A stretch of DNA of 64,000 nt, taken from Octopus sinensis (Eukaryota). A program made the position numbers and the translations under genes. The notes below the pieces were generated by a model. The model saw only the letters and a program-made list of their open reading frames with translations, was not told the DNA's origin and did not search any database. The DNA lies in the NCBI RefSeq assembly GCF_006345805.1, contig NC_042997.1:13516001-13580000 (forward strand), read 5' to 3'. Below are positions 11,785-55,527 of the stretch, piece by piece (position 1 is the stretch's first letter; each line of letters starts with the position of its first letter).

Positions 11785-12625
11785 AGCGGCGAGCTGGCAG
11801 AAACAATAGCACGCCGGGCGAAATGCGTAGCCGTATTTTGTCTGCCATTACGTTCTGCCTTTCATCCTTTAGGGTCGATAAATTAAGTACCAGTTACGCA
11901 CTGGGGTCGATGTAATCGACTTAGTCCGTTTGTCTGTCCTTGTTTGTCCTCTCTTTCTTTAGCCCCTTGTGGGTAGTAAAGAAACAGGTATTTCATCTGC
12001 CGCTACGTTCTGAGTTCAAATTCCACCGAGGTCGACTTTGCCTTTCATCCTTTCGGGGTCGATTAAATAAGTACCAGTTACGCACTGGGGTCGATTTAAT
12101 CGACTTAATCCGTTTGTCTGTCCTTGTTTGTCCCTTCTGTGTTTAGCCCCTTGTGGGTAGTAAAGAAATAGCTGTTTCGTCTGCCGATACGTTCTGAGTT
12201 CAAATTCTGCCTCTTGGGGTCGATATATTAAGTACCAGTTACGCACTGGGGTCGATATAATCGACTTAACTCCTTTGTCTGTCCTTGTCTGTTCTTGTTT
12301 CTCCTCTTTATGTTTAGCTTCTTGTGGGCAATAAAGAAATAAGACACGTTAGCACGCCGGGCGAAATGCTTAGCAGTATTTCGTTTGTCTTTACCTTCTG
12401 AGTTCAAATTCCGCCGAGGTTGACTTTGCCTTTCATCCTTTCGGGGTCGATAATATAAGTACCAGTTACGCACGTGGGTCGATATAATCGACTTAATCCG
12501 TTTGTCTATCCTTGTTTGTCCCCTCTATGTTTAGTCCCTTGTGGGCAATAAAAAAATAAGAAACTTTAGCACACGGGGTGAAATATTTAGCGGTATTTTG
12601 TCTGTCTTTAAGTTCTGAGTTCAAA
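11785..12625 (+). mobile_element. tRNA-derived SINE family A, tandem array of ~5 internal units
   Basis: Head GCGGCGAGCTGGCAGAA, B-box-like GAGTTCAAATTCC, repeated unit TTCTGAGTTCAAATTCC...AAGTACCAGTTACGCACTGGGGTCGAT...CCCTTGTGGG..TAAAGAAA. Confidence 0.9.
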
Positions 12626-16225: not shown

Positions 16226-16311
16226 TGCAGTTGAAGATGGCACTGCATTTAAATTAAAGTAATGATTTCATTGTTCAATTAAATGGAGTCGCTTGAAACG
16301 TTCGTATTGCA
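16226..16311 (+). ncRNA. Degenerate minimal hammerhead ribozyme motif (family 1)
   Basis: TGCAG-TTGAAGA-long stem II-GAAAC-GTTC-GTA-TTGCA; C3 changed to U and loop III no longer palindromic. Confidence 0.6.
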
Positions 16312-17077: not shown

Positions 17078-17161
17078 TCATCTGACGAGAACGTTTCTTT
17101 CAGATTGATGTAATGTTTTCATTAATTAATTAAATGGAGGTGCTTGAAACGGCCGTAATGA
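17078..17161 (+). ncRNA. Minimal type-I hammerhead ribozyme motif with intact core (family 1)
   Basis: TCAT-CTGACGA(17082-88)-imperfect stem II-GAAAC(17146-50)-GGCC-GTA-ATGA; stem I TCAT/ATGA, palindromic loop III, GUA cleavage triplet. Confidence 0.75.
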
Positions 17162-17234
17162 CTTGACACCTGTACATCTTTGTGACTTATATATATATAT
17201 GTGCGTGTGTGTATGCATGTATATATATGTATAT

Positions 17235-27160: not shown

Positions 27161-27174
27161 ATATGTATACATAC

Positions 27175-27241
<67 letters not shown>

Positions 27242-27360
27242 TGTATATGTGTGTGTGTATATATTAGTAAAAACGGTAAGATAACAAAAGAAAGAAAGAG
27301 ACCTCAATATTATGTAAATAGAGGAAATTTATCTGTAAAATATGTGACAATTATTCAATA

Positions 27361-27430
27361 GCCAAGATAAAACTCTGAGTTTCGGATGCCGAGGTGGAAA
27401 TCCACAACACCATCTCTTCGGTTATCTGGC
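27361..27430 (-). ncRNA. Type-I hammerhead ribozyme-like motif (family 2, U4C core variant)
   Basis: Minus strand: GCCAGATAA-CCGAAGA-GATGGTGTTGTGGATTTCCACCTCGGCATCC-GAAAC-TCAGA-GTT-TTATCTTGGC; 9-bp stem I with one bulge, near-palindromic stem/loop III. Confidence 0.7.
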
Positions 27431-27459
27431 CATGTATATAAATATACATACATACATAC

Positions 27460-27498
<39 letters not shown>

Positions 27499-28519
27499 CT
27501 TACATGCATACATACATACATACATACTTGTACACATAGAGATATGTATGTATGAGTTGTTTCCTCAATTTCTTTTTATTTGTCAGCTTCTTCTAGTGTG
27601 TCTATTACGACGAGTATGTGGTCCTCGTATTCAATGTTTATGATATATCATATCTTACTTTTTTCAATTGTAACCATCGATCCCTAAAATATAATTTACT
27701 GAATTTTTCATATGTACAGTAAAAAGCTACTTCTGTTCAAAAGAATTAATTAGTTCTTCTTGATATTAATCGCTCCCATTATATGTTTTGTTATTTCTAT
27801 TTTTGCATACATAATATAATATAGTTTCTATAGATTCTGCTACCTGAGCTTTGGCGAACAGTCTTTCTACACCAAGGTCGAGATGTTGCCTACTCCAGAT
27901 GAACGTGTACTGTAAATTCTCGGTATGGACTTTTAATAAGCTTATGTAATTGATTAGTTATCTTGTGTGTTAGTGTATTTATTGGTGATTTGAATCTAAA
28001 AGGGTTGTTTACATTGTTTTATCAATGTAAATTTTAATATCATATGAATATGTCCTTATGATTATACATATCTTTCCTGTCTTTTATTCCATATTATCAC
28101 AGTGATATTTTACTATCATGCATAGCGCGCTAAAGTTTAGTGGTGGGAGCCTTTTGTTGTGTAGATATCTATTTCCATTACACTTGCCTTGGAATAAGTC
28201 TGGAAGTTTATCGTCAATGTTTTCAGATGTGTGTGTGTATGTGTGTTTTATCTCTGAGATTGTTCGGAACTCAGTAGTGTGATTTTGTTTACTTTCATTT
28301 TGTTTTTCACTGATCAATATATCTTATACATTTGATTGTGAATGTGAAAGATGTAAACTTTACAATTCCGATTTTTTATAGAAATCACGACGATTTCCAT
28401 CGGTTCATCATGAACAGCAAAATTAAAACTTGAAACCCGATGTCACACAAGAGAAAAACAAAATGAAAGCGAGTGATAAGCATTAGGGAGCAACACATCA
28501 ATACTCTGAATAATCCTTT

Positions 28520-29955: not shown

Positions 29956-30061
29956 GCTTAGAGCACCTAAGTTTCCCAAGCGGTCACCCATCTAAGTATT
30001 AGCCAGGCTCGACGTTGCTTAATTTAGGTGATCGGTCGAGAACCTGTGCTATCAACGTGAT
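29956..30061 (-). pseudogene. 5S rRNA pseudogene (5'-truncated, diverged)
   Basis: Minus strand ATCACGTTGATAGCACAGGTTCTCGACCGATCACCTAAATTAAGCAACGTCGAGCCTGGCTAATACTTAGATGGGTGACCGCTTGGGAAACTTAGGTGCT aligns by eye to invertebrate 5S; first ~11 nt missing, substitutions in the control region. Confidence 0.9.
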
Positions 30062-30519
30062 CTTTAATTTATTGAAATTTTCCAATAATTTCGTGAAAGA
30101 AAATGCTGTGAGAAAGGCCTTCTTCATCACACTTTAACAAAATTAAGTTTATAGGCGGTACTGCGAAGTGAATTCGCTAAAGACCGAAAACGTACGACAA
30201 GAGCCGAAATATGACGAGCATTATCACATATAACTGACAACATACACGACAATATTACATGGGTATTTAAATTGCCGAAATCAACTTTAAAATGATAACT
30301 TTAAATTAATTTACAGAAATAAACTGCTGTATTAATCATATAGATAAATATCTCGTAATTATAACGAAAGTGCATTTCTGAGAAAGCAATTAGCATAAGG
30401 GTGCAGTAAGTGTGAAAAGAATCAGTGTTAAAGAGATAATGTATATAATGATATATTAAGTACAACTAATACGAAGAGACATTGAAAATATAATCAAATC
30501 ACATATTGAAATAAATTAC

Positions 30520-55110: not shown

Positions 55111-55527
55111 AAGGCGGCGAGCTGGCAGAAACGTTAGTACGCCGGGCTAAATGCTTGGCGGTATTTCGTCTGCCGCTCGTGCTGAGTTCAAATTCCGCCG
55201 AGGTCGACTTTACCTTTCATCCTTTCGGGGTCGATTAAATAAGTACCAGTTACGCACTGGAGTCGATATAATCGACTTAATCAGTTTGTCTTCCCTTGTT
55301 TGTCCTCTCTGTGTTTAGCCCCTTGTGGGTAGTAAAGAAATAGGTATTTCGTCTGCCGTTACGTTGAGTTCAAATTCTACCGAGGTCGACTTTGCCTTTC
55401 ATCCCTTTCGGGGTCAATAAATTAAATACCAGTTACGCACTGGGGTCGATGTAATCGACTTAAGCCATGTGTCTGTCCTTGTTTGTCCCCTCTATATTTA
55501 GCGCCTTGTGGGCATTAAAAAAATAAG
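55111..55527 (+). mobile_element. SINE family A (two internal units)
   Basis: AAGGCGGCGAGCTGGCAGAAACG head; TSD-like AAGTTATTTCT on both sides. Confidence 0.92.

Follow-up and report, generated by a model that had tools for sequence, protein, structure and literature searches.

A hammerhead-like motif on the minus strand of the 64-kb stretch of DNA analysed here (the window) carries C instead of U at position 4 of its core, and the question raised by this locus was whether such a change (U4C) is an inherited variant of a ribozyme that still works or the mark of one that has died. A well-formed fold had been proposed at 27361..27430 by a sequence-only reading, and every element named in it was found in its place. 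On the minus strand, the 5' strand of stem I (GCCAGATAA) was read from the sequence at 27430-27422, and a G-C pair of this stem is A-U in 7 of 40 aligned copies. The core, C3-C4-G5-A6-A7-G8-A9 (CCGAAGA), follows at 27421-27415, with the variant C4 at 27420. Stem II (27385..27414) was formed in the predicted folds by GATG (27414-27411) and CATC (27388-27385), then an internal loop and an inner GTGG-ATTT-CCAC, and one of its pairs is C-G, U-G or U-A depending on the subfamily. GAAA at 27383-27380 supplies G12-A13-A14 (within 27372..27383) and runs into the palindromic stem III, ACTC-A-GAGT (27380-27372), in which A at the loop-3 position (27376) gives rise to UCAG, a sequence complementary to the canonical CUGA. 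Following the hammerhead consensus, cleavage is predicted 3' of U17 in a GUU triplet, between 27371 and 27370, and the 3' strand of stem I (TTATCTTGGC) was placed at 27370-27361 from the sequence and the aligned copies. Two further features were recognized: an extra unpaired nucleotide at 27384 between C11.1 of stem II and G12, which is C in subfamilies S to A and U in subfamily B (defined below), and the GUU triplet itself, with U as H17 (27371).

In the test of the hammerhead core, C3, G5, A6, G8, A9, G12, A13, A14 and the A15.1-U16.1 pair were all present. The strict consensus CUGANGA failed at position 4, where C replaces U, and the wider descriptor CYGANGA matched. GUU is an NUH cleavage triplet, and U occupies the same H17 place in 10 of the 26 Hydra rows of PMC8557442 File S2. 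The motif at 27430-27361 was the single hit of two descriptor scans in the window, which found no plus-strand hammerhead. Its minimum free energy had a z score of -1.98, with 9 of 200 shuffles folding equally well, and in 30 shuffles of the 64 kb the relaxed descriptor scored as high on average 0.33 times per shuffle, or 0.03 times when a CC core was required. The Rfam hammerhead models gave no match to it at gathering or at E<=10, which is a weak negative. From one copy alone, the evidence against a chance signal was modest. However, a 28-letter pattern with positions 4 and 7 left free had 2,407 exact matches and its reversed control had none, so the motif belongs to a repeat family and is not a product of chance.

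The repeat lies, as had been described, in an island between microsatellites: 169 bp at 27265-27433 on the minus strand, with a TA/TATG tract at 27161-27264 and an ATAC tract at 27444-27527 on the side of the truncated 5' end. When a 171-bp query from this island was run against the 2.72-Gb genome, 1,378 candidates were obtained, and scoring 40 of them yielded 41 matches of nearly full length at 96-100% identity, together with 13 partial ones, many of them inverted neighbours. The window's own element end (27265..27433) is 96-99% identical to dispersed copies. A second repeat family bearing a ribozyme motif was thus confirmed by genome-wide copies, and it is distinct from the family at 16-17 kb of the window, with which it shares only matches of <=18 nt.

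The proposed association with Penelope reverse transcriptase (RT) and GIY-YIG frames was also borne out. A fragment of RT was found behind the motif in one copy (L003) and a fragment of GIY-YIG beside it in another (L011), and the RT fragment from L003 had 152 matches from 150 scored among 11,360 candidates. Open frames of 717 aa were present in L043-L045, with sequence of the window type on their flanks: the motif is located about 200 nt past the stop codon and, in four copies (L045, L054, L056 and L061), also before the start codon, the two being 2,547-2,590 bp apart. This single ORF carries YKDD and, towards its C-terminal GIY-YIG, IYEA...YVG; its neighbours in the ESM Atlas carry GIY-YIG and RVT_1, and searches of Pfam and NCBIfam with it returned no relevant hit. 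Among 8,000 scored candidates, 825 homologues of the protein were detected, the best 120 at 41-51% identity. The marks that define the Hydra clade of Penelope-like elements (PLEs) in PMC8557442 (section 11) were all located in the L043 frame (RWK at residue 46, DKT at 123, the CxCX5C linker at 566, and CxxC at 669 and CxH at 700 in the endonuclease), and the size of the unit (<3 kb) and its insertion into (TA)n agree with that clade. The features of PLE (EN+) elements were found as well, namely pLTRs from partial tandems, inverted 5'-truncated copies and an optional tail; the distance from the motif to the 3' end of the element was 20-39 nt in 64 and 90-109 nt in 69 of the 140 ends counted. 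Judged by these sequence motifs, its length and its target, the element was shown to be a PLE with the features of the Hydra clade, a likeness to Hydra-1_Obim being assessed by eye.

An alternative origin, as a non-autonomous retrozyme or an independent ribozyme-bearing SINE, was considered highly improbable. Most copies retrieved with the window sequence are short and have no ORF, which would suit it, and retrozymes have been proposed to derive from pLTRs (bioRxiv 10.64898/2026.07.22.740005). But the motif sequence flanks RT/GIY-YIG frames, the 5' ends of the copies vary and often have inverted partners, and no head-to-tail array of 170-400 nt was present among the fetched copies. The assignment to a PLE is the reading carried forward, and within it the window holds a 5'-truncated element 3' end (a pLTR with the long tail, subfamily A) on the minus strand, inserted at the TA/TATG tract in the same way as other copies, which also end in (TA)n. 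Reverse transcription would have started within the tail and ended 12 nt beyond the core, and its product would have been inserted into (TA)n; the copy is indeed of the long-tail type and is cut 12 nt upstream of C3. No ORF of the element was found between 20 and 35 kb of the window. As a lone truncated end with neither a partner nor a nearby ORF, the window copy is probably a relic, and any function would belong to full-length tandem copies.

Many properties of the element have precedents. The Hydra-clade PLEs of PMC8557442 are likewise <3 kb, with a single ORF, GIY-YIG, (TA)n, a 3' hammerhead and a palindromic stem III, and Penelope-3_HM in the same source has ACTC-A-GAGT followed by U, as here. 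Hydra-1_oBim of Octopus bimaculoides begins CTGAAGAGATG, compared with CCGAAGAGATG in the present element; 12 exact matches to the Hydra-1_oBim motif, all with T4, occur in the same genome as the window, which points to an octopus as the probable host. In contrast to the Hydra rows of PMC8557442 (26/26 with U4), the present element forms a separate high-copy family with C4, a stem II that is longer and interrupted, and one additional base, on the 3' side only. The presence of the motif in both pLTRs and the predominance of solo truncated copies are shared with the metazoan PLE hammerheads of Cervera and de la Pena 2014 (PMC4209133), who described inverted pairs 100-700 bp apart and dimers implied by the palindromic helix III. 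The core variant reported there is U3-A8, unlike C4 here, and a CCGA core is absent from that paper's alignment of 56 motifs (two supplement files).

The distribution of position 4 bore on whether C4 is inherited. Among the 2,407 exact-pattern copies, 2,286 had C, 97 had T and 24 had A or G. Positions 4 and 5 (C4-G5) form a CpG, and G5A, its mirror change, was similarly frequent (77 matches against 97 for T4), so that the T4 copies resemble the outcome of CpG decay. At 8 of 25 fetched T4 loci a partner copy was present, with C4 in all 8 and T4 in none. The possibility that the T4 copies of subfamilies A and B are a surviving ancestral subfamily was rejected, as they scatter among C4 copies in the tree and are about as numerous as G5A. 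In loci chosen by RT, independently of the motif, 78 C4 and 6 U4 were counted among 84 cores, and 5 of the 6 U4 cores were of older subfamilies; this sample covers 67 of 152 places, 52 of which gave a readable core. Contigs of four public sequencing runs (organisms A-D, labels that may stand for one species group) showed no other letter at position 4 at >=5%, although run contigs drop rare variants. The suggestion that U4C is a natural inherited variant was therefore upheld by both counts. Its possible fixation across copies, raised in the same reading, held for the two youngest subfamilies and did not hold for the lineage, whose older large subfamilies keep U4. On the copies sampled, C4 is fixed in A and B, which are young, lying 2.1% and 3.7% from their column majorities in samples biased to the best hits.

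The older members of the lineage were preserved in the same genome. A sister family, S, has a CTGATGA core and T in loop 3 (1,626 candidates, 40 scored), and a pattern for the intermediate stem gave 1,815 further matches, the first 100 listed having 94 T, 5 C and 1 G at position 4. Copies were sorted into S, I1, I2, I3, A and B by features other than position 4, leaving 27 of 212 unclassified. U4 was present in 19/20 copies of S (loop T), in 7/7 of I1 (loop G) and in 22/23 of I2 (loop G in 20/23), while I3 comprised 13 U4 and 6 C4 copies with loop A in 19/19. Loop A was present in all copies sorted to A and B, where the counts of T at position 4 are inflated by the 25 deliberately fetched T4 loci. 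The I3 pattern itself had 221 matches, among which were decayed copies of I2 and also early copies with C4. In the tree, which took in 79 of 103 distinct copies with A and B subsampled and was rooted at the midpoint, the U4 copies of I3 fell with S, I1 and I2 into a 34-row group that was separated from the C4 copies with support of 99/96; four truncated long-branch rows, one of them a T4 copy with loop G, lay near the root.

The polarity of the change was given by relatives outside the genome. CTGA is present in 26/26 Hydra rows of PMC8557442 File S2, and among 78 metagenome relatives, by hand count, 60 have a U4 hammerhead, 2 have C4 (one of these loci also has a U4 hammerhead) and 17 have none. 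Because these relatives are mostly U4, the ancestral state is U4, and the sequences showed that U4C arose once and recently from U4 ancestors in this genome, just before the latest burst to about 2,300 copies. They showed likewise the order of the changes, loop-3 G to A first and U4C afterwards: the transition group (30 copies) contains U4+G, U4+A and C4+A but no C4+G. A single copy that combines C4 with loop G was encountered, L285. The direct ancestors being U4, C4 dominant and CYGANGA matched, the core was filed as a variant and not as a canonical member of the hammerheads.

C at position 4 was also detected in unrelated families. In a second one (L163, L206-L231; e.g. L206:1490-1560, plus strand), with the core CCGATGA and a short stem II, AGGA/TCCT, the 37 exact matches comprised 31 with C4, 5 with T and 1 with A, and some copies have CTGACGA. 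The one candidate link of this family to a PLE ORF is a GIY-YIG-like frame that lies next to the L206 copy, on the opposite strand. A third family (L212, L232-L239) had 399 matches and is mostly U4; the locus L212 had suggested that C4 might be fixed there too, which was not so, the first 100 listed having 9 C4 and no A or G. Twice, both members of an inverted pair in this third family have C4, and it possibly contains a rising C4 sublineage. Two marine metagenome contigs each have a single C4 hammerhead at the end of another Penelope-like ORF (L068:2927, plus strand; L111, minus strand), and a small hammerhead family at L162 has CTGATGA once and CCGATGA once, with U4 in L203.

The loop-3 A creates UCAG, with which a CUGA core can pair. 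With U4 and loop A, the CUGA-UCAG pairing was predicted with a probability of 0.76-0.98 per base; it extends stem I and buries the core. The predicted cost of adopting the hammerhead fold was 2.9 kcal/mol for the window copy but 4.8 and 4.7 for a natural T4 copy and the U4 ancestor type I3, respectively, and in subfamily B it was 4.5 kcal/mol with C4 and 7.2 with T4. C4 is thus predicted to lower the cost of the hammerhead fold by 2-3 kcal/mol by breaking the CUGA-UCAG pairing. The predicted double hammerhead of the window sequence was 4.1 kcal/mol below two free monomers, whereas those of I3 and B were only 0.2 and 1.1 kcal/mol below and that of a T4 copy of B was 4.2 above. The predictions were not uniformly favourable to the fold: the minimum-energy structure of subfamily B was not a hammerhead, with A9 paired to the extra U and one distal stem I pair broken, and RNAalifold on 40 copies missed stem I and paired A13/A14 with U17/U1.1 instead. 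A CCGAAG/CTTCGG hairpin in stem II of subfamily B was looked for and was absent from the main predicted pairings. A variant of this subfamily (L032, L037/L050) has a 3-nt deletion that makes stem II continuous (GATGTCG/CGGCATC).

Whether this relief of misfolding was the reason for the fixation of U4C is another matter, and we regard it as doubtful, though not far-fetched, on the strength of these models. It may equally be supposed, as a tentative alternative, that the ribozyme is active, U4C is near-neutral, and its arrival after the loop-3 change was a coincidence among about 40 stepwise changes; such an account agrees with the one we prefer on activity and differs only on misfold relief. 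Six metagenome relatives combine U4 with UCAG at larger predicted costs of 6.1-9.6 kcal/mol, and since these exist and I3 itself spread, the misfold does not exclude such motifs in nature. Moreover, the second C4 family obtains no cost reduction from C4 (3.7 vs 3.5), so that tolerance of C4 suffices to explain its recurrence, and L285 is a C4 copy that has loop G. Against coincidence stand the order of the changes, which is the one that misfold relief predicts, the lack of C4+G in the transition group, and the predicted pairing of the core to loop 3, at 89-98%, in natural T4 copies.

The second rival denies the activity. It is possible, though we lean away from it, that the ribozyme is dead or irrelevant in the young subfamilies and that U4C, harmful or neutral, hitchhiked with a successful master element; transposition of the PLE would then not need cleavage, and the fold would be kept by youth alone or by a use in the protein or promoter, a version to which we give the same tentative standing. 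The subfamilies are indeed young, and the folding of subfamily B is poorer than that of A. In vitro, U4C brings a considerable loss of activity (PMC3088659) and mutants of the hammerhead leave the insertion of PAc, the Poseidon PLE of Anolis, unaffected (PMC11167929); Naiads proliferate without hammerheads, the authors of PMC8557442 suggesting that hammerheads may parasitize PLEs. The changes that followed U4C nevertheless avoided the critical columns: the 35 critical columns were hit by none of the 6 master-level changes counted in the motif (76 nt; p = 0.025) and by none of the 17 counted in the whole repeat (169 nt; p = 0.019). These columns (core, H17, stem III and the inner parts of stems I and II) were our own choice, and the test rests on only 6 motif events, on samples selected in part for having an intact core, and on a uniform model instead of a mutation model. 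C is in addition the sole position-4 variant seen to be inherited, and it recurs in the second and third families; being inherited and recurrent, C4 fits a tolerated change better than general decay.

Across relatives, 90% of the cells of the three helices were paired, compared with 35-55% in slid controls. Changes on both sides of a pair were seen at 4 of 21 pairs, which was not above shuffles (405/500), and the paired changes across subfamilies run from A-U to G-C in stem I and from C-G to U-G to U-A in stem II. The invariance of the core is partly built in, because the alignment rows and several of the patterns required an intact core. A splice acceptor with a start codon over stem I (TTTTTCAG-ATGG in subfamily A), an arrangement likened to that of Drosophila virilis Penelope, was rejected as not conserved, given that B has CAAATAG, I2 and I3 have CCGATGG, and S is without it.

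Our preferred explanation, which we hold to be somewhat better than even, is that the motif is a type I hammerhead in the pLTR of a Hydra-clade PLE whose two youngest subfamilies have C4, and that it likely still acts as a slow, GUU-cutting ribozyme of tandem transcripts. Taken separately, the retention of hammerhead activity in the C4 subfamilies appears moderately probable. The transcript of a full copy would carry both repeats, 5' and 3', at a distance of 2.6 kb, and these would assemble into a double hammerhead that trims the precursor; by analogy with other PLEs, they would pair via the palindromic stem III (ACUC-A-GAGU), with cleavage after GUU and probably with assistance from the protein that the element encodes. 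Three handicaps are stacked in the motif, namely C4, GUU and the extra nucleotide before G12. U4C would have cost catalytic rate and been tolerated, and was perhaps favoured for breaking the CUGA-UCAG pairing. The most far-reaching form of this idea, in which U4C is a natural second-site suppressor that traded rate for correct folding and the rescued ribozyme accompanied the burst, is speculative, and we would sooner bet against it.

According to PMC4209133, PLE hammerheads with a palindromic helix III show poor cleavage as monomers and weak cleavage as dimers. PAc, the one PLE reconstituted in vitro, likewise has a hammerhead in the pLTR and two classes of 3' end with an optional tail, 30-40 nt long there and about 70 nt here; PMC11167929 describes two start sites of reverse transcription, a hammerhead that needs the element's protein, and no RNA ends at the hammerhead site. 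It differs from the present element in its clade, its canonical core and a start codon within the motif, whereas the ORF here starts about 270 nt downstream. In a viroid hammerhead (Ambros and Flores 1998, via PMC3088659), U4C considerably reduced activity in vitro, but what remained was sufficient for infectivity. That case is a variant of a viroid RNA; in the present element, an animal retroelement with a dimer-type motif of type I, about 2,300 genomic copies have the change as a fixed feature, and the ancestors are preserved.

Hence U4C as such is not new, being known from the viroid and from CYGANGA, already a published search descriptor with C or T at position 4 in deep-sea viromes (PMC13481778), and hammerheads in the pLTRs of the Hydra clade have been published. 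No report of a C4 core in a PLE was found in the hammerhead and PLE literature searched, though Lunse et al. 2017, outside that scope, could list such cores. What appears to be new is the fixation of U4C in a high-copy retroelement with a preserved evolutionary series: once the activity-lowering core substitution had become fixed, the subfamilies concerned multiplied to about 2,300 copies, and both the U4 ancestors and the intermediate are still present in this genome. PMC8557442 and PMC11167929 describe as open the question of whether PLE hammerheads are of use to the element or are simply carried along. If C4 copies cleave, C4 is a working core in retroelements; if they do not, a PLE can spread with a silenced ribozyme. 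Should the suppressor idea be true, it would, together with the rise of C4 in two other families, imply selection on PLE hammerheads for a tuned cleavage below the maximum, and the ladder S-I1-I2-I3-A-B could serve as an existing series in which to test the need of PLEs for a ribozyme. These subfamilies escape strict CUGANGA descriptors, so counts of PLE hammerheads may be too low.

Several minor observations were made alongside. The elements pile up in the same (TA)n tracts, and beside these insertions more than 10 other hammerhead types were seen in about 0.68 Mb sampled, several with a very long stem II; one hammerhead, in a 477-bp tandem (L046), may be a retrozyme. The 16-17 kb family of the window (about 16230-16310 and 17080-17165, plus strand) is hammerhead-like with a long A/U-rich stem II, one core being CTGACGA with GAAAC-GGCC-GTA and the other TTGAAGA. 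A 5S rRNA-like sequence at 29958-30066 on the minus strand (63.9 bits, frayed ends) is probably a pseudogene or a 5S-derived repeat. Tandem copies of a 183-217 bp repeat with a common core sequence, at 11856-12625 and 55160-55525, probably belong to a SINE family.
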